A stretch of 64,000 nt of DNA from Klebsiella phage fENko-Kae01. The stretch lies in sequence record OR228459.1, one strand, 5' to 3'. The notes under the pieces are model-generated. The model saw only the letters and a program-made list of their open reading frames with translations, did no database searches and had not been told where the DNA came from. A program made the position numbers and the translations under genes. Each line of letters opens with the position of its first letter. Positions within the stretch are counted from its first letter, which is position 1. Below are positions 36,661-53,485 of the stretch, one piece after another.

Positions 36661-37016
36661 ATTGGCACAACGTTAATATTGTGGTAAGCATTTACACTAT
36701 ACTAGTAGTGATGTTATCATTGCTAGCGTTAGGTAAGTTCTTTTGTGTAAAAGTACTGTACGATTTATATGACCGAATTAATAATTATATTGACGAAACA
36801 CTTCCCGGTATATTTTGTATAGGTCTAGTCGTTGAAATAGCAACATTAATATGTTATCATTATGAGTGGAAACCGGGATTGATGTTATTATTATTTGCTA
36901 TTTCGATTATAACACTCATCGGTATTGTATTTTTAGTACTTGGGTTATTTTTCATTACATCAAAGTTTTTATCTGATTATCATCGTAAACTTAAAGAACG
37001 TAAAAACATTTACTAG
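36657..37016 (+). CDS. small multi-TM membrane protein
   Basis: ATGA overlap. Confidence 0.5.
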   Translation: MNWHNVNIVVSIYTILVVMLSLLALGKFFCVKVLYDLYDRINNYIDETLPGIFCIGLVVEIATLICYHYEWKPGLMLLLFAISIITLIGIVFLVLGLFFITSKFLSDYHRKLKERKNIY

Positions 37017-37025
37017 GAGATTATT

Positions 37026-37355
37026 ATGTTTCTACAATATTATGGCATGATTGGTTTTGCTATTGGTATTATAATCTGCTTAGTTTTTCTTTACCAATGG
37101 TATTTCAATGTAAAAGAATTTAAAGAACTAAAATACTTTGGTTCTTTCTTTTGTGTAATTGGTACTATTATGTCAGTGGTTGGTTATGTAGTATTGGTTA
37201 TTTTTGATGTTGGTGGTGATAATCCCGAACAGATGTTGCGTTTCTGGAACAGATGTGGTATTATATATTCAACAATTACGATATTATTCGTGATTGAGAT
37301 GCTATTACATTATCGTTCCAAGTATATTATTGGAGATAAGAACAATGAAACCTGA
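37026..37355 (+). CDS. small multi-TM membrane protein
   Basis: TAGGAGATTATTATG RBS. Confidence 0.5.
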   Translation: MFLQYYGMIGFAIGIIICLVFLYQWYFNVKEFKELKYFGSFFCVIGTIMSVVGYVVLVIFDVGGDNPEQMLRFWNRCGIIYSTITILFVIEMLLHYRSKYIIGDKNNET

Positions 37356-37473
37356 TTCATGGGTTATTGAAGATATTCGCAGAATGCGGCAAACAAAAAC
37401 CCGTACACAAATCGAAGAATCATATTTAGAACTTCTATTGTGGTATGTGAAAGTACTTAATTCTAAGGAGTAA
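37345..37473 (+). CDS. small basic protein (42 aa)
   Basis: ATG after GGAGATAAG; overlaps neighbours; speculative. Confidence 0.3.
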   Translation: MKPDSWVIEDIRRMRQTKTRTQIEESYLELLLWYVKVLNSKE

Positions 37474-37476
37474 TAT

Positions 37477-37815
37477 ATGTTCGGAACTACTAGTGATTTT
37501 ATTGTTATTATCAGCCTAACATTAATGGTTATGTTATTCCTTGATTATGTCTTCGGTGCTGACAAACTTGAATTTGCCCGGACATTACTTGTAAAGAATC
37601 AGGAATGGATTTTTGCACTAGGTTGGATTGGTGTTGGAACTATATTCAAATGTATTGGAATCTTCACTGATAGTGAAACACTATATGGTTTAGGAACTTT
37701 TTATGTTTGGATTATTATTGGTGCTTTCGGTATATATTATGGTTCCTTATATGTGGTAAAATTTATTTTAAATCTACGTTCTGCTAATATTGCAAAACGC
37801 AAAAAGCCCCGCTAA
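37477..37815 (+). CDS. small multi-TM membrane protein
   Basis: AAGGAGTAATATATG RBS. Confidence 0.5.
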   Translation: MFGTTSDFIVIISLTLMVMLFLDYVFGADKLEFARTLLVKNQEWIFALGWIGVGTIFKCIGIFTDSETLYGLGTFYVWIIIGAFGIYYGSLYVVKFILNLRSANIAKRKKPR

Positions 37816-37827
37816 GGGGCTTTTTTA
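37805..37827. terminator. bidirectional terminator between plus block and minus fibre array
   Basis: A5-GCCCC-GCTAA-GGGGC-T6 overlapping both stop codons. Confidence 0.75.
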
Positions 37828-38472
37828 TTCAAATGGATATGTTGGTGGAGTTATGGATGATTCTGTATACAACGCAGAATTGCTTATTCTGATTTGGTCA
37901 TAGTAAGCATTAGCAGAAGTTTCATACCCACCAATTCGTAATGGTGTGTTATAAACACCCCATCGATCACCATTAAGAATCATTTTCAAAGAACCACTGA
38001 TATATAAACGAACATCGGTTCCGCTCTGTACTAATGCTACATGTGTCCATACATTAAGTGGTATATTACTTGAAATTAGGCTAGTACCTTTCGTTCTACC
38101 CTGTAAGTACAAATTACTTGTATAGATTTTTACACCACCAGTAACACCAGTACCATTACTGATATACCAGTTATTGGTATTTCTACCAACAGCATACATG
38201 TAAAATTCAATAGTATAATCACCTTCTTGTTTAGATACGTTAAGATCTTTCATTTGATCCACAGCTAAACTGATAAAACCAGAAGTGAATCTAAATGATT
38301 TCTCTTGTTCGGGTAATACTATAGTACTGTCTATAGAAGGAGTACTGTTTAATGTAATAACCCTTCCCGGATTCCAAACATCTTTGAATCCATCTTTAGC
38401 TCTCATGAGCATACCATATTTTTTATCTGGTGCTGTATTAGCATATGTTAATAATCTTGAAAATGGTATCAT
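37825..38472 (-). CDS. MIPF-family fibre-like paralog 1 (short; lectin/ConA-like C-terminal domain)
   Basis: N-terminus MIPFSRLLTYAN shared with 12 downstream paralogs; 215 aa. Confidence 0.8.
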   Translation of the reverse strand: MIPFSRLLTYANTAPDKKYGMLMRAKDGFKDVWNPGRVITLNSTPSIDSTIVLPEQEKSFRFTSGFISLAVDQMKDLNVSKQEGDYTIEFYMYAVGRNTNNWYISNGTGVTGGVKIYTSNLYLQGRTKGTSLISSNIPLNVWTHVALVQSGTDVRLYISGSLKMILNGDRWGVYNTPLRIGGYETSANAYYDQIRISNSALYTESSITPPTYPFE

Positions 38473-38545
38473 TTTATTTTCCTTAATTTTGCAGACATAT
38501 ATTTAATTAGAAAAATCCCCTAACTTTGACAGTACATGGATACAT

Positions 38546-39676
38546 TTAAAAAGGTAAATCCGTCTGTTCAGAAATAATATAACTCAATGGTGTTTGGCAT
38601 ATCGAATAATTTTTACCAGCCATACTACTAGGTGGATATCCACTCATCCAAATTTTATTACCTGACCAGAAATAATTAATATACGTTCCACCACTATATG
38701 ACATATTCGTATTATAAGAACTGAAATCTACTTCTTTCCATGATTCAAAATATGGTAAATTATTGCTGGACTGACTATTAATAGGACTATACCCTGTACT
38801 AACAAGTTTATTTGTATCAGAATTGTGTAGATATAATCTACTAGGAGATGGAGATATATTGTCATTATAAAATTTACTCATGTCACCTATATTGAATCCA
38901 ACATTAATACTTTTTTGACTTAAACCTGAAACCCCTGTATTTGATGTACCGGTAACATGGATAATATTATCAGTACTTATAACAATTATACCATTATTAT
39001 AATAAATGGTATTAGGTGTGAAAGATATATCTTTAAGTACTTCGGTAAACGTAACTTTATCTCCCGGTTGGTCATTTATTTGCAGGGAGTTATTATTTCC
39101 AGCACCCCAAATAGTATTATCATTTTTTACAATAAAACATGTGTCTCCGCCAGCATCACCAAAAACACTTTTAACATTTTCAGACATTAATACCCAATCA
39201 CTAACAAATGTTTTAGTTCCATTTCCAATAGAACCATTGCGATTATATCCTCTACCATAAAGTTTACCATCATTTAACAAAACAAAGACAGTGTATCCAG
39301 CGATAATATTTTTAATATTAGATATATCGAAAGCTGAAAAGTACTGACTTACATCTGTAAATCCCTGCTGGATTGTATTCGCATTATGAAAGCAATATAA
39401 TGATCCAGTAGCATACATTTTACCATCAGTCTTATGAGCAAAAGTAACATACCCTGTCCAGAAGTTTACAACATCTTGTGCAGACAAGACAATATCTCCT
39501 GTTATATTCAAAGCTGTACTTCCACCCCATAGGTAATCATTATCAACACCATGTGCATATAAATCCCCGTTTTCTAAGAGGATCAGACCACGGGTGTTAT
39601 ATGACAAAATTTTTTTAATACTTGGTAATCCGGGTGCTATATTAGCATAATTTAATATACGAGTGAATGGTATCAT
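38546..39676 (-). CDS. MIPF-family fibre-like paralog 2 (RCC1-like repeats)
   Basis: Start set to MIPFTRILNYAN; GRGYNRNGSIGNG / GAGNNNSLQIND repeats. Confidence 0.8.
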   Translation of the reverse strand: MIPFTRILNYANIAPGLPSIKKILSYNTRGLILLENGDLYAHGVDNDYLWGGSTALNITGDIVLSAQDVVNFWTGYVTFAHKTDGKMYATGSLYCFHNANTIQQGFTDVSQYFSAFDISNIKNIIAGYTVFVLLNDGKLYGRGYNRNGSIGNGTKTFVSDWVLMSENVKSVFGDAGGDTCFIVKNDNTIWGAGNNNSLQINDQPGDKVTFTEVLKDISFTPNTIYYNNGIIVISTDNIIHVTGTSNTGVSGLSQKSINVGFNIGDMSKFYNDNISPSPSRLYLHNSDTNKLVSTGYSPINSQSSNNLPYFESWKEVDFSSYNTNMSYSGGTYINYFWSGNKIWMSGYPPSSMAGKNYSICQTPLSYIISEQTDLPF

Positions 39677-39687
39677 TTTATTTCTCC

Positions 39688-40866
39688 TTACGTGTTCCAC
39701 GGTAATTTTATTGGTGTGAATTTTGGATACAAAATAGTTGCTTCTAAACCGGGTAAGTACTTACCTTGTCCAGCACCATAAACATTCCCATTAACATCAC
39801 ACAGTATTGTTGAATAATTTCCACATGCAGTTATTGTTTTTATTTCTGAACCTTTTACTTGTACATCCCCTCCACCAAAAATAGTTGGTAGGTAATTAAC
39901 AATAGTTGCCACAGTAGAACCAGTACCAGATGAATACGAACTCGCATTATTATATCCATTAACCATCAATCTATCATAACCATCAACAATATATGTAAGA
40001 ACATTAAATGTAGTGAATGATGATTTTGCAGGTAATGACAATGTATTAGTAACTAATGTTGGTTTTTGAACCGGGGCAGGTGAAGCAGTACTTCCCGGTG
40101 TTGCAGTACTATAATAATTTGTACCCCATGAATATACATTACCATCAATTGTGATACATTTATAGGATAATGCATCGCTTGATAACGATTTACACTTTTG
40201 ATTATTTGGTAACACCAATCTTGTAAATGATAAAAGTGTAACCCCGTTATTGGCAATGCCAGAATTATTATCATTTCCACATCGGTATAGTTCTCCGGTT
40301 TTAGTAAGGAGCCATGTTGCAATATTTCCATTAACATCAAGTACTTCCTCTACTGGCCCACCAGTATGCTGTAACATAGTCCATGTTAATGGTGCGGTAC
40401 TTAATCCAAATGATGGATAATTAGTTGGACTAATTACTTTTACAACCCCAGAACTATCAATTTTATATAATCCATGTCTAGTAGTAAATAACTTATGAAT
40501 ATCATTGCCATCTGATAGCATTAGATCAGTGAAATCAGTAAATGTATTTGTATTCGATGCATTTGGTATAACAGACGCAATCCAACCCGTATAAAACCAT
40601 TTTCCATCTACTGTTTTGATTATACATCCCGGAGTCATATCTTCTATCCAAAAGTCTTCTACGTCATCGCGAAGAATATGCCATCCATCTAAAAAATTAT
40701 TAATGTCTTGACCATTGCCAAATTCACCATTACTACTTTCACCGAATGCATATAATATATTATTATTATCTAACAGATAAAGTGCTTTTTGCCATCCTGC
40801 TATTTTCTTTACAAATTTGTTTTGTACGGTATTTCCATACGTTAATATCCTTGCGAATGGTATCAT
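39688..40866 (-). CDS. MIPF-family fibre-like paralog 3 (RCC1-like beta-propeller repeats)
   Basis: MIPFARILTYGN; GESSNGEFGNGQD repeat. Confidence 0.85.
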   Translation of the reverse strand: MIPFARILTYGNTVQNKFVKKIAGWQKALYLLDNNNILYAFGESSNGEFGNGQDINNFLDGWHILRDDVEDFWIEDMTPGCIIKTVDGKWFYTGWIASVIPNASNTNTFTDFTDLMLSDGNDIHKLFTTRHGLYKIDSSGVVKVISPTNYPSFGLSTAPLTWTMLQHTGGPVEEVLDVNGNIATWLLTKTGELYRCGNDNNSGIANNGVTLLSFTRLVLPNNQKCKSLSSDALSYKCITIDGNVYSWGTNYYSTATPGSTASPAPVQKPTLVTNTLSLPAKSSFTTFNVLTYIVDGYDRLMVNGYNNASSYSSGTGSTVATIVNYLPTIFGGGDVQVKGSEIKTITACGNYSTILCDVNGNVYGAGQGKYLPGLEATILYPKFTPIKLPWNT

Positions 40867-42059
40867 TTTATATCTCCTTGATTTACATTCAATCCATGTT
40901 TCATTGATTCTTTCGTTAAATCTTTTGGGAATTTACCAAATTTGTCTGATATATTAGTATAAGTATCATATGTAATTATTTCTGTTTTAGTATTAAATCT
41001 ACCACACATATATATTGAACCATCTTTCAAGTATACATAAGTTGCTGAGTTACCTAAATCAAGATACACAATATCATTAGTATTAAATGGAACTTGAACT
41101 TTTACTGGAGATACTCTAACGGTTCCATCATTTAATCCTCTAAATGAAGTATTTCCGGTAACATACATACCTTCATTTGTGTAATACATAGTTGTATTAC
41201 AGTTTGAAAATGAATTATCAGCAAGACCTATAATACTGGTTCTCATAGGCCATGAATTACTTATTATAGTGGTTGACGTTAGATTATTAGTAGAACCATT
41301 ACCAAATACACCATTAAAACCAAATCCTCTTCCATACCACGTTTTATCAACATAAGAAGGAAAAATTATTGCATATTGATGATCCTGTAGTGATTTACCA
41401 TATATCTCATCAGTACTAGCATTTCCAATTAATACTGGATATGAATAAAAAGTACTTTCAGGGGCTGATGAAAATATACTAGCTATATTTTGACCACCAC
41501 CATGTACTTGACCCGATGTATTAATTGTCCACCAGTTTGTACCACTATTACCTATAGCTATAATATTTGTACTTACTAAATTCCAATTTGTATATGGCAC
41601 TGTACTAGAGTTTAAACCCCTTTGTGAACCAATCACTCTGAAAAAATTATTATTATCTATGAAACCAATACTAGGGGAACCTGTATTAAATGAAACTGTA
41701 TCAATAATAATAGAGCCTGAAGAAAAGAAAATATCTTCTTTGAAAGTTGTTTCCATTGTATTGTCATTACTAGTACGATAAACTCTAGAACCCGTATAAT
41801 AGACTTTATTATTAGTTTCTTGAAGCATCAAAGAGTTCCCAAATTGATCCATCCAGAAATTTTTTACGTTATTTCTTATAAGTGTCCAATCTTCATGCCA
41901 TACTTTTGCTTGACCATCACCAAAAGCACCATTGCCTCTACCATGCAATTCCCCATTACTTAATAAAATCATCCAAGATGCTGTACTGAATTGTATTTTA
42001 ACAATCTTAGAATCTTCCGCTATATTGCCATAATTTAACATTCTTGTGAACGGTATCAT
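40863..42059 (-). CDS. MIPF-family fibre-like paralog 4
   Basis: MIPFTRMLNYGN; GRGNGAFGDGQ repeat; ATGA-coupled to paralog 3. Confidence 0.85.
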   Translation of the reverse strand: MIPFTRMLNYGNIAEDSKIVKIQFSTASWMILLSNGELHGRGNGAFGDGQAKVWHEDWTLIRNNVKNFWMDQFGNSLMLQETNNKVYYTGSRVYRTSNDNTMETTFKEDIFFSSGSIIIDTVSFNTGSPSIGFIDNNNFFRVIGSQRGLNSSTVPYTNWNLVSTNIIAIGNSGTNWWTINTSGQVHGGGQNIASIFSSAPESTFYSYPVLIGNASTDEIYGKSLQDHQYAIIFPSYVDKTWYGRGFGFNGVFGNGSTNNLTSTTIISNSWPMRTSIIGLADNSFSNCNTTMYYTNEGMYVTGNTSFRGLNDGTVRVSPVKVQVPFNTNDIVYLDLGNSATYVYLKDGSIYMCGRFNTKTEIITYDTYTNISDKFGKFPKDLTKESMKHGLNVNQGDIK

Positions 42060-42069
42060 CCCCTTCTCC

Positions 42070-43236
42070 TTATATTATTCTTGGTTGCATTGGAACTTTA
42101 TTCCATTTGGTAAAATCTTCAGTTGACCCCGGTATCCATCTTGAATTACCCACTGCATATACCGTATTTTCATGCCAATAATACACGTAATAACCACCTT
42201 GAACAACATGTGTTGGATCGAAGATAATATCTTGAAGAAAACCATTTTGCACTAAGGTTGAATATATTATTGTTGATGTATTACCTATTCCAAATCTACC
42301 ATAGTAATCAGAACCAGAACTATATATAGATTCTGAAGTACAAAGATAAATTGCTCCTTCACTGCAAAAACTATTTGTGTACTGAACAAATTTACTGGCT
42401 AATTCAGAATCAATTAATGTATTTTTTGTTAGTGTCGTGTAATAAGAAGATGCAGTAGTCCCATCAGCACATAAACCATTACCACGAAACCCGCTCATAT
42501 ATACATCATTGCTTTCTGTAATAATCAAGACATTATTAGCACTTAAAATAATGGTTTTTATTGGCAATGTAAACGGTACTTTATAGAATATAGGTTGCTC
42601 ACTTGAAAATCCTAGACCTAAAGTTCCATATAAATTTCTTCCAGTACCGAAAAGTTCACCTGATGTACTAATATAAAATGAGGCATCACTTGATGAACTT
42701 AATGAACTATAAATTTCTTTCACTCCACTAGCTACACGTTTAAATGATGCTGAAGGTGTAGTACCTAAACCAATATTACCGTACTGATTATTTGATGCAT
42801 ATGTTCCTTGACCAATAGCATAAAGCTGTTCATCTTGTAATAAAAATAATCCTCTACTTCCAAACATTAATTTGGCTTTGTTTAAATCAAAGTTATTGAA
42901 AGTTGATGTTATTTCAGTAAATGTATTTAAATATCCAGATGATGCTCCCAATGATGCTCGATAACCAGTAAAAAACACTTTATTATTTTCAGTAATAATT
43001 AAAGTACAGTCAACACCAACATATATATCTTTTATATTTTCGATTGGACATTTTACCCATGTATTTTTGTTTACTAATGTTCCATCACCTAATTGACCAC
43101 TTGTATTATCACCAGTACCAAATGCTTGACCATCATCAAATAGTACAAAAATAAATCCATAATACGAAACAACTTTTTTAATTTTAGTTTTTGGTAAAAT
43201 ATTACCATATGATATAATTCTTGCAAATGGAATCAT
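42070..43236 (-). CDS. MIPF-family fibre-like paralog 5
   Basis: MIPFARIISYGN; GDNTSGQLGDGTLVN RCC1 signature. Confidence 0.85.
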   Translation of the reverse strand: MIPFARIISYGNILPKTKIKKVVSYYGFIFVLFDDGQAFGTGDNTSGQLGDGTLVNKNTWVKCPIENIKDIYVGVDCTLIITENNKVFFTGYRASLGASSGYLNTFTEITSTFNNFDLNKAKLMFGSRGLFLLQDEQLYAIGQGTYASNNQYGNIGLGTTPSASFKRVASGVKEIYSSLSSSSDASFYISTSGELFGTGRNLYGTLGLGFSSEQPIFYKVPFTLPIKTIILSANNVLIITESNDVYMSGFRGNGLCADGTTASSYYTTLTKNTLIDSELASKFVQYTNSFCSEGAIYLCTSESIYSSGSDYYGRFGIGNTSTIIYSTLVQNGFLQDIIFDPTHVVQGGYYVYYWHENTVYAVGNSRWIPGSTEDFTKWNKVPMQPRII

Positions 43237-43312
43237 AATCCCCTCATAATTCTTGTAATTATATTATATTTAATTAAAAAAGGTCAGTACTGGTATTGTA
43301 CTGACCTTTTTA
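43237..43312 (-). promoter_or_regulatory. intra-array terminator + late-type promoter cassette
   Basis: Hairpin GGTCAGTAC-TGGTATT-GTACTGACC + T-run, then TTAATTAAATATAATATAATTACAAGAATTATGAGGGGATT-ATG (minus strand). Confidence 0.6.
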
Positions 43313-44434
43313 TTATTTCCAAGGCATTTTTTCATCGGCAAGTCGAGTAAGCCTATTAAAAAATGAAATTCCATTTATTGGTGTATTACCACATACAAAC
43401 ATATCATCGTTATTATCAATAACCATTGAAAATAAATTATCACCACCAAATGAAACAATATTAGATACTGTACCGAATATCATTGGTGTTAGTGTAGCTT
43501 GTGCTGATGAAGATGCACCATTACCACATTGTCCATAGCTATTAAATCCACAACGCCATATTTGATTGTTAATCCATATCATCGGTGACATACCCAAACT
43601 GTTTGTTAAAGAACCAATTACTCTTAATGGTACAGAAGGATCAAATTGAGTACTGATCTGTACTGAATTAAGTACTGGATTTGTATTACCAACCGAACCT
43701 TGACCTTGTGTGTTAATTGATGCAGTTCGTATAGAACCATCTTTCATAAAATAATATGTTGTATAAAACGTATTAGCAGTGTACAATACATCATCCAATG
43801 TTTTCGTAAATGTAGGTACTGAGGTTGGTGTAGTACCAGATAACATCATCATTCCTGCATAATAACAACTTCCATCACTTAATATTAAACAGGTTGTATT
43901 GAATGAACAGGACATGTACTGAACGTTTTCGATTGAACTATATGTGAATTTAGTAACACTAGCAGAACTACCAGTACCGAAACACCCAGCACTATTGCTT
44001 CCATAAAAGAACCATTTTCCATTATTCAATAATACTCTAATACCTTCAGCAATGTAAACACTTTTTATATCATCTGGCGATACCCCAAAATCTGAAAAGT
44101 ACTTCGTTACATTAACAAAGGATCTTGTATTTTGTGCTATTGGCATACCATATGTACTTCCAGTGTACCACATTATATTATCTTCATCTATAGCCAGTGT
44201 TCCATGTACACCACCGAAATATCTTTTCACTCTGGTTAATACCTTAGTCCACGATGATAGGTTCGTTGTATCACCAGTTCCTAATTGACCCAAGTTATTC
44301 TGTCCAATTGCATATAGATCACCATTACGGTGTAAATACCATGCTGCACTGTAATTTACCTGAACTCGTTCACCCAATATAGTCGGTGCTTTAACTTCAT
44401 TGCCATAACTTAATATTCTTGTAAATGGTATCAT
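43313..44434 (-). CDS. MIPF-family fibre-like paralog 6
   Basis: MIPFTRILSYGN; GQNNLGQLGTGDTTN. Confidence 0.85.
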   Translation of the reverse strand: MIPFTRILSYGNEVKAPTILGERVQVNYSAAWYLHRNGDLYAIGQNNLGQLGTGDTTNLSSWTKVLTRVKRYFGGVHGTLAIDEDNIMWYTGSTYGMPIAQNTRSFVNVTKYFSDFGVSPDDIKSVYIAEGIRVLLNNGKWFFYGSNSAGCFGTGSSASVTKFTYSSIENVQYMSCSFNTTCLILSDGSCYYAGMMMLSGTTPTSVPTFTKTLDDVLYTANTFYTTYYFMKDGSIRTASINTQGQGSVGNTNPVLNSVQISTQFDPSVPLRVIGSLTNSLGMSPMIWINNQIWRCGFNSYGQCGNGASSSAQATLTPMIFGTVSNIVSFGGDNLFSMVIDNNDDMFVCGNTPINGISFFNRLTRLADEKMPWK

Positions 44435-44456
44435 TATTATTCCTCGATTATTTTAA

Positions 44457-45626
44457 TTACATTGGCAATACCAACGGAAGTACTGAACCAATACCATATG
44501 TTGGAACATTACTTTGTATTGTTGGTGCTGTATTTTTTGGTGAAGATGTGGCTATATTAGGAAAAGATGAAGATGGATTAAACAATACTATATTACCAGA
44601 ACCACTCATAAGCATCAACCCATCGTATTTCTCATTTTGTGCACATTTCTCGAATGTTCCAATGTCAACTGTAGAATTCACATAGTTTTTACTTCTATGT
44701 CCACAACCATATATTTCATTATCAACTGTCATGTAATATGATACGCTTCCTGAACTCGTATTAATAAATTTAAAATAGCTACGGAAATTAGCTGGTAGAA
44801 TTGGTAATGTTCCTGATACGAATCCATAAAACCCACTATTAGTATTACCATTACCCAACGAACCATATGATCCCCATCCAGTTCCGTAATATGTCCCATC
44901 AGATAAAAAAATTATACAATTGTTATTGCACATTTTAATTTGATTGATTTTTTGAACATCCACACCCGGAAATGATTCAGTAAATGTTAATACATTAGAA
45001 ACACTACTTGCATTACATTGGTTTTGTGTATTACGTCCAGATGATAGTACTGTGCCATCTTCTAAGATAATTCTTGCTGCTCCAGTACCAGACATACATG
45101 CTACCGCATTTGATGAATTAAACAATTTCTTTAACGAAAAAAAACCAACATTGGCTTTCCCTTGACCTGACCAACCTTCTGTATCAGTACCAATACCCCA
45201 CACCGAACCATCATTATGAATAAGCATAAGACCATTTCTATCAATATTAATGTATTTTATCTCATTAATATCTATTCCGACAAAACTAGATGTAACGTCA
45301 ATCCATGTATTCGAAACTGTTACAGAACTTTTCAATACGTTGTGACCCGTTAACATAACTTTACCAGTACTTGTAATATATATTGTTTGTGAAAAACCAG
45401 TACTACATAACCTAACTTCATCAACTTCGGGAACCATAATCCACTCATTAAATGAATTTGTGTTATTTCCAGTACCCAATTGACCATTGGCATTACTACC
45501 AGACAAATATAACTTTTCATTGTAAATCAATGAATACGTTTCACTATATTCTGAAGTACTCAATAAAATTGATTTTGGTATTGGTGGTGTATTTCCATAT
45601 AACATGATTCTAGCAAATGGTATCAT
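44457..45626 (-). CDS. MIPF-family fibre-like paralog 7
   Basis: Start set to MIPFARIMLYGN; GSNANGQLGTGNNTN. Confidence 0.85.
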   Translation of the reverse strand: MIPFARIMLYGNTPPIPKSILLSTSEYSETYSLIYNEKLYLSGSNANGQLGTGNNTNSFNEWIMVPEVDEVRLCSTGFSQTIYITSTGKVMLTGHNVLKSSVTVSNTWIDVTSSFVGIDINEIKYINIDRNGLMLIHNDGSVWGIGTDTEGWSGQGKANVGFFSLKKLFNSSNAVACMSGTGAARIILEDGTVLSSGRNTQNQCNASSVSNVLTFTESFPGVDVQKINQIKMCNNNCIIFLSDGTYYGTGWGSYGSLGNGNTNSGFYGFVSGTLPILPANFRSYFKFINTSSGSVSYYMTVDNEIYGCGHRSKNYVNSTVDIGTFEKCAQNEKYDGLMLMSGSGNIVLFNPSSSFPNIATSSPKNTAPTIQSNVPTYGIGSVLPLVLPM

Positions 45627-46325
45627 ATTTGAACCTCCCACATCTTAACATATTGTATCCTACCTTTGAATAAAACTGGATTAGCATTATTATCTCCAGC
45701 AACATATGAGCCAAATAAACTAAAATACTGATTATCTGGTGATAATATTTGATACCAAGGAAATGTTTGTGTTTCATTAAAAAGTTCAGAATGTACAGTA
45801 ACAGAAATACCTTTTCTAAACTCCATTTTTATAGTATCCCATGCATTGGGGTTAGACCATGTTGGAAGTATTCGGGCAAAATTATTTCCCCAATCTATGA
45901 ATACTTGATTATATGTAGCACTATATTGGTTGAATGCATTAACAAATCCCGATATTCTTCTGCTATTATAATTACCAGTTTCAAATAACGTTTGCCCCCC
46001 CAAGTGGTGAACATTTCATTCTATATTCTATGGCAAATGCATTATACAGACTGAAGTCTAATTTGATTCCTTTTACTGGATTTATAGTTCTAAAATAAAC
46101 ACTACTATTTGTACAATCCAATACATTAGACCCTATTTCATCATCATATACCACAGTTCCGGCGATGGGATTAGTTATACCTATTTGTGAACGTTGTAAA
46201 AATGCATTACCTGCTCTATCAGGAATACCAGTACTACCAATTTTTTGAGTACTGTAATCTACATCAAGTATCATTTTTTCGGGTGCAATATTCCCGTATT
46301 TTAATATCATTGAAAATGGTATCAT
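45623..46325 (-). pseudogene. MIPF-family paralog 8 (lectin-like), split by frameshift at G7 homopolymer; phase-variable or slippage-dependent
   Basis: ORF 45981-46325 (MIPFSMILKYGN...) and ORF 45623-46003 overlap at CTTGGGGGGGCAAAC; deleting one G fuses frames into ~238-aa protein. Confidence 0.6.
45995..46001 (-). repeat. poly-G(7)/poly-C(7) homopolymeric tract at frameshift site
   Basis: Read directly: TTTGCCCCCCCAAGTGG on plus strand. Confidence 0.9.
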
Positions 46326-46412
46326 AATCCCCTCATAATTCTTGTAATTATATTATATTTAACCAAAAAAAGCCAGTACACCATTTTTAGTACTACACGA
46401 AATTTAAGTTTA
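46326..46412 (-). promoter_or_regulatory. intra-array promoter cassette (copy 2)
   Basis: Conserved ATAATTCTTGTAATTATATTATATTTAA sequence upstream of paralog 8. Confidence 0.55.
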
Positions 46413-47597
46413 CTATAATTTCCACGGTAATTGCATTAGAGATTGAAAATATCCATTGAAAATATCATTTGTTAAACAAGTTGGGTTCGTGTTTTTCCCG
46501 CAGCCCAAAATAATATTTTCATCCCTGCATATATATCCATTATAATAATTACATATAATAATATCATGTTCTTTGCAAATTATATCAGGAACTATAGTAT
46601 ATGTACCTATATATTGGGGTGATGTTCCTAAACCCAACGCATAATTATAATTATTTCCAGTACTATATAATCTATTATTAATATCAACATACATGGAAAC
46701 GCCACTATGCATTGTATATACTTTACCAAAATAATTATAATCATTACATGAATTCGGTAATTCCACGGTGATCATATTACCTGATGTATTTTGATTCGTA
46801 TTCGTTGTATTTCCATCACCGAATGCCCCGGCTGAATTCGTACCAATACAATATGCTGTTGACTTAGTATACGCAATCGTATTGTTAGTAGACATCCTAA
46901 CCTGAAGTATAGGTTCACTTACAGTACTAAACATTCGATGAAAACGAACAATATTCTCATTATTAATGCCACCCTCAGTACTGGTTTTTATACAATATGA
47001 TGCATTCCTACCAGCACCCCACACTGTCCCGTCTTTTTTAATATATACACTATTTTGTGAAGTAATAGAACAATCTTCAACATCAGTATCTATCAATGTC
47101 AATGGGAAATATCCAGTACTACCAACACCTAATTCACCATAACGATTAAGTCCAATACCATAAAGTTCACCATTGTTTAATAATACAAATGTATTATTCT
47201 CAGGAACTATTTTTTTAATATCTGATATATTAATAGAACTAAACAAGTTAGAGATATCAGTAAATGTCGTATACCCTGATGCTGTACCACTGTTATTCTG
47301 AATTGCTCGATCGCCTGATAAAAATATTTTATCATCATGCGAAATATATATAGTACTTCCAATCCCATTAGTACATAACTTAATATCCGATTCTGGTATT
47401 TTAAATAAAGATCTAGGTCTATCTGATTTATGACCCAACCCCAATTGACCATATGCGTTATACCCACCAACATAGGCATCGCCGGTGCTTAATAAAATAC
47501 TATAAGAAACATTAGAACTAAAACTTAAATTCATTTGTTTGATATATGGTATTTCTCTTATATTACCGTATGTCAATATCCTAGCAAATGGTATCAT
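46413..47597 (-). CDS. MIPF-family fibre-like paralog 9
   Basis: MIPFARILTYGN; GYNAYGQLGLGHKSD. Confidence 0.85.
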   Translation of the reverse strand: MIPFARILTYGNIREIPYIKQMNLSFSSNVSYSILLSTGDAYVGGYNAYGQLGLGHKSDRPRSLFKIPESDIKLCTNGIGSTIYISHDDKIFLSGDRAIQNNSGTASGYTTFTDISNLFSSINISDIKKIVPENNTFVLLNNGELYGIGLNRYGELGVGSTGYFPLTLIDTDVEDCSITSQNSVYIKKDGTVWGAGRNASYCIKTSTEGGINNENIVRFHRMFSTVSEPILQVRMSTNNTIAYTKSTAYCIGTNSAGAFGDGNTTNTNQNTSGNMITVELPNSCNDYNYFGKVYTMHSGVSMYVDINNRLYSTGNNYNYALGLGTSPQYIGTYTIVPDIICKEHDIIICNYYNGYICRDENIILGCGKNTNPTCLTNDIFNGYFQSLMQLPWKL

Positions 47598-47674
47598 ACA
47601 TTCTCCTTATTTGTACAATTATATTATATTTAATTAAAAATGACAGTACTTATGTAGTACTGTCATTTTTCTTA
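47598..47674 (-). promoter_or_regulatory. intra-array terminator + promoter cassette (copy 3)
   Basis: AATGACAGTAC-TTATGTA-GTACTGTCATT hairpin + T-run; conserved promoter block. Confidence 0.6.
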
Positions 47675-48478
47675 TTATGTAGTTGGGCCTACATTACTTG
47701 TGGGAAATCTACGACCACCTCCCCAAATAATACGCACACCACCCAATCCTTCATCAGTACTTGTATTACCAGCACCACGATATATGGTTGTACCCGGAAC
47801 CGCACTACCTGAACTACCACGATAATGTGCAGCAGAACCACTTCCAGATTCACCCATACCAAATAAACCAACTGCACCACCTGAAGCAGCTATACCGCCC
47901 CCTCCGCCAGCACCACCAGCACCAGAACTGCCAGATGAACTACTTGCACCATTACCACCATTACCTTCATAGCCACCAGCACCACCTGAGCCGCCTCTTT
48001 CATATCGATAAGTACCAGAAGTCGGCCCACTACCACCTCTACCACCATCGCCGCCGCCATCGTTTATTTGACTGGCATTCTTTCCACCAACACCTCCTGA
48101 CCCTCCGGCACCACTAGACATTGTAGTACCATAACTGCCCATTTTTCCACCACCAGCAATGCAAGCATTTGAGTTATTTTGTAATACATAAGAATTTCCA
48201 CCATCAGAATTGGCTGTATAACCATTTACACCAACTGTAACTGATAGTACTTCACCGGGAGTTACCACTACATCATTCCTATAACTTAAACCACCGCCAC
48301 CGCCACCACCACCAGTACTTCCAGTGCCAACCCTACCACCACCGCCAACACATAATATACATATAGATTCAACATCATCTGGTACTATAAACTCAAATGT
48401 TCCAGATTGAACCCAGACCATTTCCCCTTTTGGTGGTAATTTATTTCCGTATGTTAGCATTTTTGTAAATGGTATCAC
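47675..48478 (-). CDS. MIPF-family paralog 10 with glycine-rich C-terminal domain
   Basis: MIPFTKMLTYGN then FEFIVPDDVESICILCVGGGG and long GGxGG tracts. Confidence 0.8.
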   Translation of the reverse strand: MIPFTKMLTYGNKLPPKGEMVWVQSGTFEFIVPDDVESICILCVGGGGRVGTGSTGGGGGGGGLSYRNDVVVTPGEVLSVTVGVNGYTANSDGGNSYVLQNNSNACIAGGGKMGSYGTTMSSGAGGSGGVGGKNASQINDGGGDGGRGGSGPTSGTYRYERGGSGGAGGYEGNGGNGASSSSGSSGAGGAGGGGGIAASGGAVGLFGMGESGSGSAAHYRGSSGSAVPGTTIYRGAGNTSTDEGLGGVRIIWGGGRRFPTSNVGPTT

Positions 48479-48488
48479 GATTGTCTCC

Positions 48489-49622
48489 TTAATTAATTCT
48501 TATTTTAGTAAAAATATTATTTTCTGAACCATCAGATTTTTTTCCCGGTAAAACACTAATACTTCCAACTCCCCAAATATCATTTCCATCAAATATTAAA
48601 GAATAAAAAGTTCCACCCAAAATCTGTACTTTTTTGTTATCTTGTACTGTTGTAAATTTAGGAATTTCTTTAAAAATAGAGGATGCCTGTGGTAAGCCAC
48701 TATATTCAACTAGACCCGTTGCATAAAATGTACCGTTAGTACCTAAAAATATATTTCTGTTTGGTGTACCCTTTAACTTTCCTCCAATAACCATTTGGGA
48801 TGGCATGTTTATTTTGGTTGACCAAGATTTAAGCTGAGTATTTGAATTTACACCGTCACCTAATATCCCATTAATTTGCCAACCAGAACCTGCTATTGTC
48901 GTTGGTGTCCAATATGATAATGTACTAGCACGTGTTGCCATAAAGGATGATGTGCCACCATTAAGTATTATCCCCCACGTATACTTATTTTCTGAATTAC
49001 CAGAACCAAATTGACCATAAGGCTGTTGTCCCGCTCCATACAAATATACGGAAGTGGGTGAAATTCCACGAGCTATCATAGAATAGTCTCCAACATATAA
49101 TTCTTGATGGTAAGTAGTACCAACTCGCGTAAATGAACTTATCCGATTTGTAGATCCTAGACCACACGCCCCATTACTATTCCAACCTCTTGAATATAAT
49201 TGATTGTCGATATCAATATATCCCATAGTGTATAAACCAATATCTAATTCTTTCACCGAATCATAAGATGGCATAGTATTAGTTATATCATCACCTTCTA
49301 TTGGAGATAATCCACCAGTAGTATTCTTGGTTCCTAATACATCATAGTTTCCATTAAAAATCCATTTTCCATCCTTAGTATATATTAATGTACTCTTAGA
49401 ACCACACCAAACATCTTCTGCATTTCTATCCAGTACTACAAACTCGTAGTACTGATATGTTGCTGTGCAATCCTTTAACTGATTAGAATTGTTATAACCA
49501 ATACCATATAGTAATCCACTTTCCATTAATACCACATAATGTGTATCACCACATGATATTTTCTTTATATTACTTGGTACAACTACATTACCATATCCCA
49601 ATATCCTCGCAAATGGTATCAT
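48489..49622 (-). CDS. MIPF-family fibre-like paralog 11
   Basis: Start set to MIPFARILGYGN; GWNSNGACGLGSTNR. Confidence 0.85.
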   Translation of the reverse strand: MIPFARILGYGNVVVPSNIKKISCGDTHYVVLMESGLLYGIGYNNSNQLKDCTATYQYYEFVVLDRNAEDVWCGSKSTLIYTKDGKWIFNGNYDVLGTKNTTGGLSPIEGDDITNTMPSYDSVKELDIGLYTMGYIDIDNQLYSRGWNSNGACGLGSTNRISSFTRVGTTYHQELYVGDYSMIARGISPTSVYLYGAGQQPYGQFGSGNSENKYTWGIILNGGTSSFMATRASTLSYWTPTTIAGSGWQINGILGDGVNSNTQLKSWSTKINMPSQMVIGGKLKGTPNRNIFLGTNGTFYATGLVEYSGLPQASSIFKEIPKFTTVQDNKKVQILGGTFYSLIFDGNDIWGVGSISVLPGKKSDGSENNIFTKIRIN

Positions 49623-49640
49623 ATATCCCCCATAATTCAT

Positions 49641-49696
49641 GTAATTATACTATATTTAATTAAAAAAGGCTAGTACGCACTTGTACTAGCCATCTC
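49641..49696 (-). promoter_or_regulatory. intra-array terminator + promoter cassette (copy 4)
   Basis: GGCTAGTAC-GCACTT-GTACTAGCC hairpin; conserved promoter block. Confidence 0.6.
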
Positions 49697-50842
49697 TCAA
49701 TTAATAGATTTAATATCAACTTCTGCACCCAATGACAATTTAGTAAAGGTAGTTGTATCTTGACTTAAGGAAGGAAAAGAAGAACCACTATACCAAATTG
49801 TATTTCTAGTTATTATCATAGTATTAGTTGAATTAGCACATATTCCAATTATATCATTAAGTACTAACTCATCTGGCAAATTAATAATTGTCTTATTTTG
49901 GGGCGTAACCTTATTACCTAAACCCAATTGTCCACTTGTATTATTTCCAGTACAATATAAATCATTATTCACACTAAAAAATGTACCATAACGTGTTAAT
50001 ATAGAATATGGATGATTGAAAAACTTATTAGCACCAACCATACTATACAAACCCGTAATACCAATTTGGGCTGTACTTCCATTACCCATACAATAATAAG
50101 TACCTAATCCCGCTCCATATATCCAACTTTGATTAATAGACATAACCGCCGATGGCATTAAACTCCATGAAATGTTAGAAGTTCTAGGAGCAGAAGCAAC
50201 TTGTACTTCATTCGGCGTAGGTGATGTTCCAAGCATCGATGGTGCATTACCAAAACCACAGATAACATCATATGCACTGAACCATTTTCGATAAGCCGTT
50301 ATGCCATTATAAAGCTGTACATCTTTAACCCTAGAAACCATTAAAGTAGGTACTGATAACATTCCATTTAAGGCAACCTTATTACTTAAACTATAAGTAC
50401 TATTCCTACCAACCATATATAAATCACCATATGTGCGATCAGTCGAATTCGGTATTAAATAAGCCATGTTGTTTAAAGTAGCTGTAATGTTATAAGCATC
50501 ACTAGGAATAGTAAAGGGAAGTTTGGTAAAACTATATACATTACTATTAAGCCCTAAACATGTGCGGTTGCCAGATATATAGTACTGACCATCATTTCCT
50601 TGAATGATCACACTCATATCAGTAGCACATACCACTTTTTTAATATTACCTGCAATCAATCTCCATTCAGATAATGGTGCAGAATCACCAGTACCCAATT
50701 GACCCTGACTATTATCCCCTAATGCAAATAAATTACCAATAGAATCTATATATAATGCAAAATAATTCAATCCACAGAATTGAACTATTTTTGCATCCGG
50801 TAATGTGTTCCCATAATCCAATATCCTAGCAAACGGTATCAT
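49697..50842 (-). CDS. MIPF-family fibre-like paralog 12
   Basis: MIPFARILDYGN; GDNSQGQLGTGDSAP. Confidence 0.85.
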   Translation of the reverse strand: MIPFARILDYGNTLPDAKIVQFCGLNYFALYIDSIGNLFALGDNSQGQLGTGDSAPLSEWRLIAGNIKKVVCATDMSVIIQGNDGQYYISGNRTCLGLNSNVYSFTKLPFTIPSDAYNITATLNNMAYLIPNSTDRTYGDLYMVGRNSTYSLSNKVALNGMLSVPTLMVSRVKDVQLYNGITAYRKWFSAYDVICGFGNAPSMLGTSPTPNEVQVASAPRTSNISWSLMPSAVMSINQSWIYGAGLGTYYCMGNGSTAQIGITGLYSMVGANKFFNHPYSILTRYGTFFSVNNDLYCTGNNTSGQLGLGNKVTPQNKTIINLPDELVLNDIIGICANSTNTMIITRNTIWYSGSSFPSLSQDTTTFTKLSLGAEVDIKSIN

Positions 50843-52038
50843 ATATTATCCTCTCTTAAATTAAAATCTGTTATTAATGTAAAATTCTCAGATAATGGTG
50901 TACTTAATGGCGTAAATCCAACACCAGCACTTGTTGTTAACCCCGAACCCTTTGCATATAGTAACGGGGCCATATTCAATGCACAAAGAGCAAACATCCT
51001 CGTATTTGTATAAGCCCTATATGTGTTCCCATTGCCCTGTACTGTATATCTTGGCGTGAATGTGAGAAGACGATCTCCACCACCTCCATCCATATAACCC
51101 GCAAAATATAGTACACCATTAGTATCAGATAGGATATTCGTCCAATACGTCTGGATGGATGTCCCAAATAGTGATAATAAATTACCCGGCTTAAATGCTA
51201 ATTGTGCAGTATATAACCGAACATTCGCATCTACACTAATATTACCTATCCCCCACGCACCAGCATAATTTCTTCCTGAACAATAATATTTTCCGTCCGT
51301 CCTAAAAAGCATAAAATGTGTTTGACTTATACGAAATGCATTATATTCATAATCTACCTCAGATGTAGCCTCAGAAAATAATTGTGTCCATGTAGTATAT
51401 ACAGTACTTTGAGATGTAGTCTGCATCTGTTGATAAGTGTTATCTCCAGTACCCCAAAATGTTCCATCCAAATCCTGATATACTCCATTAATATTCGTTA
51501 TCCAACAATCCTGTACTGACGATTTTAATAGTACTGGCGTGAAACTAGGAGTTTTATTAGCACTACCAAAGTAACCATAATCGTTTTTTCCATGTGCATA
51601 TAATGAACCATCATTCAACAAAATATAAACTGTGTTGTAATTCATTGTTATTTTCTTAATCTTTAATATATCAAAATACGTAGAATAAAATGAAGTCTTA
51701 TCAACCCATGTGGCTGTATTACTAGTACCATCATATATCGTCTGACGACCTGTATAAAATAATTTATCATCATTCGATAATACAAACGTTCCATATGTAC
51801 TACCCCATGCAGTCTTTACATCCCTCTTAACTAAATGCATCTCACCATAGTAATTTACACCAACTGGAAAACCCAAAACATATCCATAATTCTTATCACA
51901 GGTTCCCCATAACTCTCCATTATTCAAATGCATCCACATCGTCGCGGCGGTATTATCCGAATCCAAAAAGAAGTCAATCACTTTTGCGGGTGCTGCTACC
52001 TTATTCCCATACTCTAATATCCTAGTAAATGGTATCAT
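50839..52038 (-). CDS. MIPF-family fibre-like paralog 13 (first gene of array)
   Basis: MIPFTRILEYGN; GKNDYGYFGSANKTP, GRNYAGAWGIGN. Confidence 0.85.
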   Translation of the reverse strand: MIPFTRILEYGNKVAAPAKVIDFFLDSDNTAATMWMHLNNGELWGTCDKNYGYVLGFPVGVNYYGEMHLVKRDVKTAWGSTYGTFVLSNDDKLFYTGRQTIYDGTSNTATWVDKTSFYSTYFDILKIKKITMNYNTVYILLNDGSLYAHGKNDYGYFGSANKTPSFTPVLLKSSVQDCWITNINGVYQDLDGTFWGTGDNTYQQMQTTSQSTVYTTWTQLFSEATSEVDYEYNAFRISQTHFMLFRTDGKYYCSGRNYAGAWGIGNISVDANVRLYTAQLAFKPGNLLSLFGTSIQTYWTNILSDTNGVLYFAGYMDGGGGDRLLTFTPRYTVQGNGNTYRAYTNTRMFALCALNMAPLLYAKGSGLTTSAGVGFTPLSTPLSENFTLITDFNLREDNI

Positions 52039-52181
52039 ATTATCCCCCTATAATTATCATTATATCATATTTACCCATATATATACCCTTTTTAATATAT
52101 TAGAAAACTCTATAGTACTACCATATATACACCATATAAACGCATAGAAAGCCATAAGAGAAGACTTCTCCAATATTATAC

Positions 52182-52242
52182 ACAGGTGTAGCTCCTGTAG
52201 ATAGCGGCTCTTAGACGCTTATCGAAAGGATTCAACACCTGT
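52182..52242. repeat. large inverted repeat ACAGGTGT...ACACCTGT enclosing 45 nt
   Basis: 8-bp perfect arms read directly in non-coding control region. Confidence 0.5.
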
Positions 52243-52394
52243 AAAAATACCCAATTGTTAATATGTACAGTACTTTTACTTTTAAAATTATTCAGGAAAT
52301 AGTTACACATTGAACTATATTAGTAAGTACTAATGGAAGCTACTATTCAGTACTTACCCCCTTCCGCTATATCTTCTCTGTATAAGAAGATAGA

Positions 52395-52580
52395 AAAGTA
52401 CTAAAAAGTACTACACACCTTTTTTACAAAGTACCATTCAACCTTTTTCCCGAAAGTACTCCATCCTAAATCCCAATCCTAGAAATTTTGGAGTACCCTC
52501 CAACCTCCAGCTAAAATCTCAAAAGTACTCCATCCTAAATCTGAATCAACAAAATGCTGGACAACCATTCAGTACTAAAT
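52395..52580. repeat. iteron-like AGTACT-containing direct repeats (two exact copies of AAAGTACTCCATCCTAAATC 69 bp apart)
   Basis: 52453-52472 and 52522-52541 identical; additional AAAGTACT/GAGTACC units at ~25-35 bp spacing. Confidence 0.6.
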
Positions 52581-52699
52581 TATAATGTTATTAGTGGGAA
52601 TCTACCCTCGTATATATGATGCTGTATATAATATCAGTACTGAACGAATTAACAGTATTAGTAGATATACCAGTACTGAAAATATTTTGAAAATAGTTG

Positions 52700-52728
52700 T
52701 TGACACCGTGGGAATATTTTGACATAAT
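52700..52728 (+). promoter_or_regulatory. promoter TTGACA-N17-CATAAT in control region
   Basis: Consensus spacing; only a 22-codon ORF downstream. Confidence 0.45.
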
Positions 52729-53064
52729 ACACGGCATGGAAGATGTGGTGAGTTATCATCCTGACTTCTGTCTTGTTTATGAAAATAGATTGAAACAGTA
52801 CTAACACGTTTATAACAACGTAACAGTACTGATATGAAGTGAAAAGTATTACCCACCAGCTTAAGCTGGTGGATGTGGTTAGAATAATAAGAAGGGGAAT
52901 CCCCAATCATACGATGAACTATATTCAATTCTACCAGTACTGCGAATAGTTACTCCACAAGAATGAGAAGACTGTTGTAGTACTGAACTTTTTATGACGA
53001 GAAAATTTGAATAGATTTTGGGTGTACTTATCCTGTACTCTGGACGGATTAAGGGCGTGTTTGA

Positions 53065-53150
53065 TTCTCATTCGCATATAAGAATGATAAACTTTCTCAA
53101 CATGAGAATGGTTCTCAGTTGCAAATAAGAATAGTTCTCAAATGAGAATA
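53065..53150. promoter_or_regulatory. four operator-like TTCTCA...(G/A)AGAAT inverted-repeat sites at ~25-bp spacing
   Basis: TTCTCAacaTGAGAA and TTCTCAaaTGAGAA palindromes plus two longer-spacer versions. Confidence 0.5.
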
Positions 53151-53314
53151 ATAATGATTATCGTTTTCAGTACTAGACTAATTTTTCCATTGGCTAGCCT
53201 ACCGCGACGGAATATAATATTCCGGCAGTATCACGAATCAGCTTGTTTTAAATCTGCCGTTATTATCTCAATATCTGGGTAGAATGTCAAGCTAATATTT
53301 TAAAAAATAAATGC

Positions 53315-53343
53315 TTGACACGTTGGCAGTACTTTGCTATTAT
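53315..53343 (+). promoter_or_regulatory. promoter TTGACA-N17-TATTAT driving non-coding IR-element transcript
   Basis: Perfect -35; no protein-size ORF before next promoter. Confidence 0.6.
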
Positions 53344-53370
53344 ATACACATAGCAAGAACAATGCTCAAG

Positions 53371-53458: not shown

Positions 53459-53485
53459 TCTCCGCTTTCTCGCGTCTATATAGTA

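Follow-up and report, generated by a model that had tools for sequence, protein, structure and literature searches.

One short N-terminal peptide on RCC1-like, lectin-like and glycine-rich proteins encoded by a tandem gene array of Klebsiella phage fENko-Kae01

Introduction

Clusters of genes for receptor-binding proteins with shared N-terminal anchors are already well known, including that of phage RaK2. In such multi-receptor-binding-protein arrays (RaK2 gp526-534, K64-1, PhiKp24 and tailspikes 1-4 of CBA120), clustered genes encode virion-borne host-binding proteins, divergent binding parts follow common N-termini and the cluster varies between relatives. Similar features are found in a tandem array of 13 genes at positions 37825-52038 of a 64,000-nucleotide stretch from Klebsiella phage fENko-Kae01 (sequence record OR228459.1; the whole stretch is referred to as the window), whose products all start with a short common peptide, hereafter the tag. 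In RaK2, too, part of the cluster is located on the minus strand and close to an end of the genome, and there are two shared N-terminal families. Different from the array in this study, however, the spikes of the RaK2 type are 570-1113 amino acid residues long and share N-termini of at least ~25-60 residues, whereas the anchor is 12-17 residues here, and the cargo behind it is a single globular propeller or lectin in a protein of 215-399 residues with neither a shaft nor an enzyme domain. Fibre and tailspike proteins of the RaK2 type are trimeric depolymerases. The tag was not found on the N-termini of the RaK2 tailspikes, which share other, longer N-termini.

The 'DNA condensation protein' arrays of phages 121Q, PBECO4, phAPEC6 and GAP32 consist of the same RCC1 gene family and are of the same array kind. 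According to the CBB paper, 121Q has 13 RCC1 genes and PBECO4 has six; the authors of the phAPEC6 paper counted eleven RCC1 copies and read them as evidence for tandem duplication. These papers treat the RCC1 members only, as candidates for DNA condensation or for an inner body. The common peptide, its LamG, Kelch and glycine-rich carriers and the exchange of cassettes are not mentioned in the literature found on these arrays. Papers up to 2026 still name the genes chromosome condensation regulators, while the Sharanji paper, the fEgEco12 paper and a jumbo-phage comparative review contain nothing on the mechanism, and the small tagged proteins are not resolved in the RBPseg paper on Vequintavirinae fibres. 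A link between RCC1 and a viral hypervariable region turned out to be a false lead, as 'RCC1xxx' in the paper concerned denotes culture-collection strain numbers. An earlier reading of the window from its sequence alone (the sequence-only reading) had proposed the array as an undescribed system. Multi-copy RCC1 arrays are in print for 121Q, PBECO4 and phAPEC6, and to that extent the proposal falls; the common short tag on mixed cargo, together with its cassette behavior, was not found described in the papers searched.

In phage T4, an N-terminal signal of ~10 residues is common to unrelated internal proteins, which are encoded in a hypervariable locus. Similar to this capsid-targeting locus, the array combines a short N-terminal peptide on unrelated proteins with a variable cluster, and its products end in the particle. 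The array proteins are, however, 4-10 times larger than the T4 internal proteins, are not basic, lack a conserved protease site and have low peptide counts, and their folds are instead of the lectin and propeller types. Among the gp38-type adhesins (T2 and S16 gp38) and the Pam3 gp24 fibre head, on the other hand, gp24, which the Pam3 authors compare with S16 gp38, has as its receptor-binding tip the glycine-rich lattice domain of the product of gene 10 of the array (genes are numbered 1-13 by increasing coordinate), and in both cases a small separate protein would attach by its N-terminus to a fibre or baseplate. Different from gene 10, gp38 and gp24 possess folded N-terminal helical domains and depend on chaperones, and gp24 is a trimer. 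Gene 10 has a short peptide instead: no folded helical attachment domain was seen in its AlphaFold model, and no chaperone-like gene was found in the array, adjacent to gene 10 or elsewhere. Moreover, the tag of gene 10 is common to twelve other cargos of different folds.

A Common N-Terminal Peptide on Unrelated Domains

The list of open reading frames (ORFs) bore out that 13 consecutive minus-strand genes fill positions 37825-52038. An N-terminal alignment confirmed the common MIPF start seen in the sequence-only reading for 13 of 13 genes, with the consensus M/V-I-P-F-[ATS]-[RKM]-[ILM]-[LIM]-x-Y-[GA]-N. In this consensus I2-P3-F4, Y10 and N12 are invariant and R6, I7, L8 and G11 nearly so, and a longer form of 12-17 residues reads M-I-P-F-x-R-I-L-x-Y-G-N-(x-A-P). 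A degenerate DNA pattern for the tag matched the window 13 times, always at the start of an array gene, and gave 0 matches in 100 shuffles. No other ORF of the window carried the tag, and it was also absent from the remaining 290 kb of SE_PL, a near-identical sister genome of ~350 kb. The mean pairwise identity was 76% for residues 1-12 vs 26% for the propeller bodies. At conserved tag positions synonymous codons were used, four for Gly11 and three each for Arg6 and Leu8; thus, selection acts on the peptide and not on the DNA.

In the AlphaFold models of the products of genes 9 and 10, residues 1-10 had a pLDDT of 55-56, compared with > 90 for most of the domain behind them. In both models the tag formed a short helix isolated from the fold, which comprises residues 4-11 in gene 9. 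The tag is thus predicted to lie outside the folded domain in the propeller and the glycine-rich protein alike. The possibility that the N-terminal segment is the closing strand of the propeller was rejected, because the models place the tag away from the folded domain and because proteins that are not propellers carry it as well.

Ten of the genes encode RCC1-like propellers behind the tag, as the sequence-only reading had stated and Pfam searches bore out. They are gene 2 (38546..39676, 376 residues), gene 3 (39688..40866, 392 residues), gene 4 (40863..42059, 398 residues, overlapping gene 3 by 4 nt), gene 5 (42070..43236, 388 residues), gene 6 (43313..44434, 373 residues), gene 7 (44457..45626, 389 residues), gene 9 (46413..47597, 394 residues), gene 11 (48489..49622, 377 residues), gene 12 (49697..50842, 381 residues) and gene 13 (50839..52038, 399 residues), the last being the first gene of the array in the direction of transcription. 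The lengths given for genes 2, 7 and 11 are counted from the MIPF start; their mechanically called ORFs are longer, but ribosome-binding sites precede the MIPF codon. Of the RCC1-like Pfam models (PF00415/PF13540/PF25390), WD40_RLD was matched by all ten and RCC1 or RCC1_2 also by nine. None of the ten reached the whole-domain cut-off of 150 bits, while the single-repeat models were above their cut-off in most. The match was strongest for gene 5 (WD40_RLD, 135 bits), whose sequence matches in the Protein Data Bank (PDB) included UVR8, RPGR, HERC2 and RCC1, and gene 4 was divergent (WD40_RLD, E=5e-5). The seven-bladed propeller that had been expected for a member of ~390 residues was predicted with confidence for gene 9, the one propeller modeled (pLDDT 91.2, pTM 0.90), where ~28 strands formed seven four-stranded blades. 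In a Foldseek search, this model matched viral RCC1 proteins of GAP32, PBECO4, CR9 and PVP-SE1 with a probability of 1.0.

Gene 1 (37825..38472, minus strand, 215 residues) carries the tag MIPFSRLLTYAN followed by a LamG/ConA-like lectin domain. The lectin assignment made from the sequence alone was supported by a match to Laminin_G_3 (PF13385; E=5e-9, 36.8 bits vs a cut-off of 27.6). Homologs of gene 1 were found in GAP32 (41% identity), in Dickeya phage AD1 (AD1_091, 'putative structural protein') and among proteins of Vequintavirinae and cyanophages that are labeled 'structural proteins'. Gene 10 (47675..48478, minus strand, 267 residues, GTG start) proved to be glycine-rich, as described before, with a match to Gly_rich_2 of 28.1 bits vs a cut-off of 24.3. 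Its domain was predicted to consist of a beta-sandwich and a polyglycine lattice (pLDDT 86), and the core GGGAGGYxGxGG was conserved across 39 homologs. Foldseek related this model to the Bxb1 tail tip, the Pam3 fibre gp24 and the ALK glycine-rich domain; for the Bxb1 tail tip and the Pam3 fibre the E-values were 1.5e-5 to 1.3e-4, with TM-scores of only 0.30-0.36. Searches of PDB sequences with genes 1 and 10 returned nothing significant. A distant glycine-rich homolog is on a 273-kb contig, and no array was found in its surroundings.

Gene 8 (45623..46325, minus strand) carries the tag MIPFSMILKYGN and a domain of the 'virion structural protein' family phrog_6011. Alignment with the intact ortholog Munch_540 (233 residues; phrog_6011 match E=1e-36) showed that a +1 frameshift splits gene 8 into two ORFs, 45981-46325 (114 residues) and 45623-46003 (126 residues). 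The frameshift is at a G7 homopolymer (45989..46004, minus strand) and could be a sequencing error, a pseudogene mutation or slippage-prone phase variation. The sequence-only reading had grouped gene 8 with gene 1 as lectin/ConA-like. This assignment is unverified, because Munch_540 had no Pfam match even at E<=10 and the resemblance between gene 8 and gene 1 is limited to the first 17 residues. The ortholog of gene 8 in Erwinia phage Hallingskeid matched Laminin_G_3 at E=0.29 only.

The cargo of the array thus falls into at least four mutually unrelated families, instead of the three C-terminal domain types first proposed. Since unrelated members have just the N-terminal peptide in common, the genes are not a family of 13 paralogs. 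Neither is the description 'fibre-like' appropriate, as the proteins have no shaft and no coiled coil and consist of a tag of ~12-17 residues and a single globular domain. What did prove sound is the notion of a short N-terminal peptide on divergent binding domains, which are non-enzymatic. Finally, 12 of the 13 proteins are acidic to neutral, with a pI of 5.3-7.5.

Tagged Arrays in Related Phages

Four Salmonella jumbo phages, Munch, 7t3, PHA46 and SE_PL (337-350 kb), are 98.5-98.7% identical to bases 37825-52038 of the window. By sequence, the window is from a Munch/7t3-like jumbo myovirus of the Rak2-like/Asteriusvirus-related group. In the sister records, the array genes are labeled 'DNA condensation protein', 'regulator of chromosome condensation', 'X-linked retinitis pigmentosa GTPase regulator', 'PE-PGRS family protein' or 'hypothetical protein'. 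In Munch, the tag is present on each of the 17 array genes. In the E. coli phage phAPEC6, every array gene starts with MLPF[AG]RM[VI]KYGN, including unannotated ORFs and a glycine-rich one of 244 residues, and the propellers are just 24-29% identical to gene 5. Ten consecutive tagged genes of Erwinia phage Hallingskeid encode a Kelch propeller, eight RCC1 propellers and a 223-residue 'virion structural protein'.

A scan of metagenomes for the tag identified 64 tagged ORFs on 27 stretches, including several contigs of 308-366 kb. Their cargo comprised RCC1 propellers, Kelch propellers, RCC1+Kelch fusions (667-690 residues), at least three divergent LamG families, glycine-rich domains and unknown families. 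A scan of IMG/VR for the exact tag matched one contig; the exact form was too narrow to be informative. Judged by domain assignment, all recognizable tagged cargo is a non-enzymatic binding scaffold, and the tag is conserved among genera of jumbo phages, between which the identity of the propellers falls to ~25%.

Transcription Units and Cassette Exchange

The array is divided into six blocks that resemble transcription units: genes 13-12, 11-10, 9, 8-7-6, 5-4-3-2 (led by gene 5) and 1. Within the blocks the genes overlap by 4 nt or are separated by gaps of 10-22 nt, and the spacers between the blocks are 73-87 nt long. Four of the spacers contain a hairpin terminator followed by a near-identical promoter-like box, TTAAATATAATATAATTAC, on the minus strand. 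These elements are upstream of gene 5 (43255..43311, with TTAAATATAATATAATTAC itself), gene 8 (46344..46398, with an identical box), gene 9 (47615..47670) and gene 11 (49641..49691). In addition, promoter-like boxes are located upstream of gene 13 (GGGTAAATATGATATAATGA, 52057..52076, minus strand) and gene 1 (TAATTAAATATATG, 38491..38509, minus strand). At the end of the array, a GC-rich hairpin, AAAAGCCCCTTAGCGGGGCTTTTT (37801..37824), which is annotated as a terminator in Munch, is common to the array and the converging plus-strand genes. Elsewhere in the genome, ATAAATA boxes are found at similar distances before the capsid, scaffold, protease, sheath, fibre and baseplate genes, and in the related phage CBB, ATAAATA has been described as the motif of late promoters.

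Compared with Munch, which is 98-99% identical in the common parts, the window lacks four genes, Munch_539 and 547-549. Moreover, the Munch_540-type gene (gene 8) is at another position in the window than in Munch and is only 91.6% identical. The breakpoints between the window and Munch are at gene starts and promoter boxes. For instance, positions 50808-50853 match two Munch gene starts, and at this 5' end of gene 12 the window and Munch differ by three genes. Given that the junctions are at gene starts and promoter boxes, the array changes by whole cassettes, via recombination at the repeated tag and promoter sequences.

Virion Presence and Possible Function of the Tag

Virion proteomics was available for five relatives of fENko-Kae01 from three independent studies. 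The RCC1 protein gp001 of GAP32 is a structural protein by mass spectrometry. In phAPEC6 virions, gp003, 005, 006, 007, 009, 010, 549 and 551 were detected; a check of the GenBank genes showed that all eight belong to the array, carry the tag and agree in size. In three Eneladusvirus phages, four 'DNA condensation' (RCC1) virion proteins had 3-25 peptide identifications each, and a 'PE-PGRS' protein, which is the ortholog of gene 10, had 1-13. By comparison, the counts were 5-30 for the portal, 5-40 for the neck, 13-29 for a tail fibre and 834-1337 for the major capsid protein. This crude comparison of peptide counts in relatives suggests that each tagged protein is present in tens of copies per particle, not hundreds. 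The sequence-only reading had left to proteomics the question of which members are incorporated; those detected in GAP32, phAPEC6 and the three Eneladusvirus phages include RCC1 and glycine-rich proteins.

The tag probably serves for incorporation into the virion, with a single socket receiving all cargos. That it docks interchangeable adhesin modules onto one virion site, where they are displayed externally, is the reading we prefer among those considered, and we give it an even chance. According to this reading, every cassette would encode one small, single-domain, non-enzymatic binding module behind the common peptide of 12-17 residues, and a structural protein would offer one socket, into which the tags of all cargos plug. 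Each particle would then carry a mixed set of binding modules, perhaps ~10-30 copies of each, most likely on its outside at the tail, neck, whiskers or capsid. The modules may be lectin-like adhesins with which the phage broadens or hedges its attachment to host surfaces or to the environment. As the array evolves, whole cassettes would be gained, lost or moved when the conserved sequences of tag and promoter recombine. Interchangeable receptor-binding proteins on a common virion site had also been proposed in the sequence-only reading; the common peptide and the divergent binding domains were observed, while we infer that the proteins dock, where they do so, that they are exposed on the surface and that they bind receptors.

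Several observations were counted for an outside location. By Foldseek, the nearest solved relatives of the glycine-rich cargo are the tail tip of mycobacteriophage Bxb1 and fibre gp24 of cyanophage Pam3. Pam3 fibre gp24 has a glycine-rich receptor-binding head, which the Pam3 authors compare with gp38 of S16. The RCC1 gene gp033 of the Cronobacter phage CR9 directly follows a tail-fibre gene, one RCC1 homolog carries Phage_fiber_C, a C-terminal domain of prophage tail fibres, and in an uncultured 175-kb phage (L049) a tagged glycine-rich gene comes after a gene for a collagen/fibritin-like fibre of 1146 residues. The structural-protein labels of the LamG homologs and the acidic to neutral pI of the array proteins may also point to the outside.

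Other observations weigh against external adhesins. The virion data come from relatives, and the copy numbers drawn from peptide counts are crude. The array boxes share the TAAATA core with the ATAAATA boxes but are not identical to them, and TATAAT is also present, which makes the promoter class ambiguous; late expression of the array is therefore likely, and not more than that. An anchor of 12 residues is far shorter than the known anchor domains of receptor-binding proteins. Phage CBB has tail whiskers but no RCC1 homolog. Finally, these proteins could in principle make up the inner body of 121Q and phAPEC6, the composition of which is unknown.

That the array proteins are themselves tail whiskers was considered and rejected. 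Because CBB has whiskers without RCC1 genes, the proteins are not whisker shafts, and they have no fibrous part; they could decorate whiskers. A search for the socket with Pfam on a 3342-residue protein and the fibre proteins of SE_PL yielded no candidate. The 3342-residue protein is gp165 of SE_PL (L018, 20354-30382), which is encoded in the tail/baseplate module and has no Pfam match. A 381-kDa protein was detected in Eneladusvirus virions. SE_PL gp165 is a candidate scaffold for whiskers or docking.

Propellers of the RCC1 superfamily can inhibit other proteins, an example being beta-lactamase inhibitor protein II. Such an activity would suit an alternative in which the tag targets proteins to the capsid, as the signal of the T4 internal proteins does; the cargo would enter the prohead core, perhaps as the inner body, and be ejected into the cell, for example to block host defences. 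T4 provides the precedent of a short peptide on diverse internal proteins, and the phage group has a T4-type prohead protease, a scaffold and a gp23-like capsid protein. Moreover, the copy number of array genes differs among near-identical phages, as in an arms race, and RCC1 proteins were proposed for the inner body by the phAPEC6 authors. However, a T4-type signal would be expected to have a [LIV]-x-E cleavage site of the prohead protease directly behind it, and no positionally conserved site of this kind follows the tag; five of the 13 proteins have none at all in their first 60 residues. In the capsid protein, a plausible LRE site is found at residues 41-43, in agreement with the maturation from 42 to 37 kDa reported for 121Q. 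The array proteins are also acidic to neutral rather than basic, and the peptide counts are at the level of portal and tail fibre, not of the hundreds of copies of bulk core proteins. Furthermore, the solved relatives of the glycine-rich cargo are tail-fibre parts, and the RCC1, LamG and glycine-rich relatives in other phages are encoded in tail-fibre modules or are of lectin type. Capsid targeting is considered unlikely, but it is the foremost rival of the external adhesin reading.

The tag could also be a signal for an assembly or turnover factor, either a phage chaperone or chaperonin that folds propellers and lectins or a phage Clp protease or its adaptor. The annotations of SE_PL include a chaperonin, a GroES-like co-chaperone, ClpP, an ATP-dependent Clp protease and a 'protease adaptor protein', and tail-fibre adhesins often need dedicated chaperones, such as Pam3 gp25. 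The proteins end in the virions of relatives, however, a single signal for at least four unrelated folds would be unusual for a folding chaperone and the array contains no dedicated chaperone gene, all of which makes this explanation improbable. Even less credit is due to an explanation at the DNA or RNA level, in which a tract of recombination or gene conversion, or the context of translation initiation, for instance, would account for the common 5' end and the peptide itself would have no function. The breakpoints of cassette gain and loss in tag and promoter sequences, and lineage-specific tag variants within one genome that would fit gene conversion (for instance MLPFVRMFDYGN in L029/L047), are in its favor, but synonymous variation is abundant at the invariant residues, and the amino acid sequence is conserved across genera in which the DNA cannot be aligned.

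The name RCC1 derives from the eukaryotic RCC1, which is a Ran exchange factor, and to our knowledge bacteria have no Ran. The database label, by which the array genes would encode RCC1-type regulators of chromosome or DNA condensation acting on phage or host DNA, can hardly be correct, as its sole support is the Pfam/PHROG family name together with a suggestion in the phAPEC6 paper, whereas the proteins are acidic to neutral and found in virions of relatives, and the LamG, Kelch and glycine-rich proteins with the same tag and array have no link to DNA.

The docking of external adhesin modules through the tag may be one case of a wider principle, in which large myoviruses use short, lineage-specific 'zip-code' peptides as universal plugs to mount monomeric lectins and propellers on one socket. 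We regard this extension as doubtful at present. In Rak2-like jumbo phages such a plug would be MIPFxRILxYGN, and Vequintavirinae and uncultured phages would have a possibly related one, M-x-E-x-L-L-x-G-G.

The LamG and RCC1 homologs of Vequintavirinae have this different short N-terminal motif, M-x-E-x-[LM]-L-x-G-G. It is carried by GAP31_094, 106 and 108 (L013, 69-719, 1275-1886 and 6004-6657) and by CR9 gp033 and gp037 (L015, 5953-7119 and 9100-9744), some of which are annotated as virion structural proteins, as well as by ~14 of 94 metagenomic glycine-rich homologs from uncultured phages. The motif looks like a double-glycine leader, and a loose alignment with the tag of the array is possible (x-I-L-T-x-G-x-x-A-P). 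This hints that large myoviruses generally equip small binding modules with short N-terminal tags.

If true, the external adhesin reading would correct a widespread annotation error, as 'DNA condensation protein' or 'regulator of chromosome condensation' is used on dozens of jumbo-phage genomes and the family is placed under nucleotide metabolism in PHROGs; the case for re-annotation is clear. It would also give a reason why these phages retain 10-17 propeller genes. A particle with a mixture of lectin-like modules would be a testable model for host-range hedging in broad-host-range jumbo phages, and the question bears on how the capsid, neck and tail of 121Q and phAPEC6 are decorated and what their inner body is composed of. 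Moreover, the tag would be a very small, transferable signal for virion incorporation. A 12-residue tag that loads small domains would be useful in the engineering of a 350-kb therapeutic-candidate phage, and a plug-and-play display of adhesins, reshuffled by cassette exchange, could be used to decorate phages with arbitrary binders.

Genomic Surroundings of the Array

The surroundings of the array, with ~35% GC, many small plus-strand genes and five tRNA genes, are consistent with a T4-related jumbo myovirus, and T4-type head, tail and replication genes are present in the sister genome SE_PL. The tRNA genes, for Pro, Lys, Glu, Gly and Leu, are at window positions 183-414, 3529-3604 and 6813-6895, amid small plus-strand genes. 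At 36289-37815, four adjacent plus-strand genes encode small (109-123 residues) multi-pass membrane proteins. They converge on the end of the array and have the GC-rich hairpin terminator at 37801-37824 in common with it. Upstream of the array, positions 52039-53600 contain almost no ORFs and four sigma-70 promoter matches (11 of 12 positions) on both strands, and the linear Munch record terminates within this region, at window position 52369. The GC skew is -0.15 to -0.29 across 38000-52000 and positive on either side, which mirrors the inverted transcription of the array.

A protein 100% identical to the product of gene 9 is encoded on a 352,720-bp 'Salmonella enterica' contig, where it is named 'hypothetical protein [Salmonella enterica]'; thus, a complete lytic jumbo-phage genome has been deposited as a bacterial contig. 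Finally, a second tandem array, of ~25 consecutive genes for proteins of 135-215 residues, is located outside the window, at 250.4-264.7 kb of SE_PL (L021, 375-14696).

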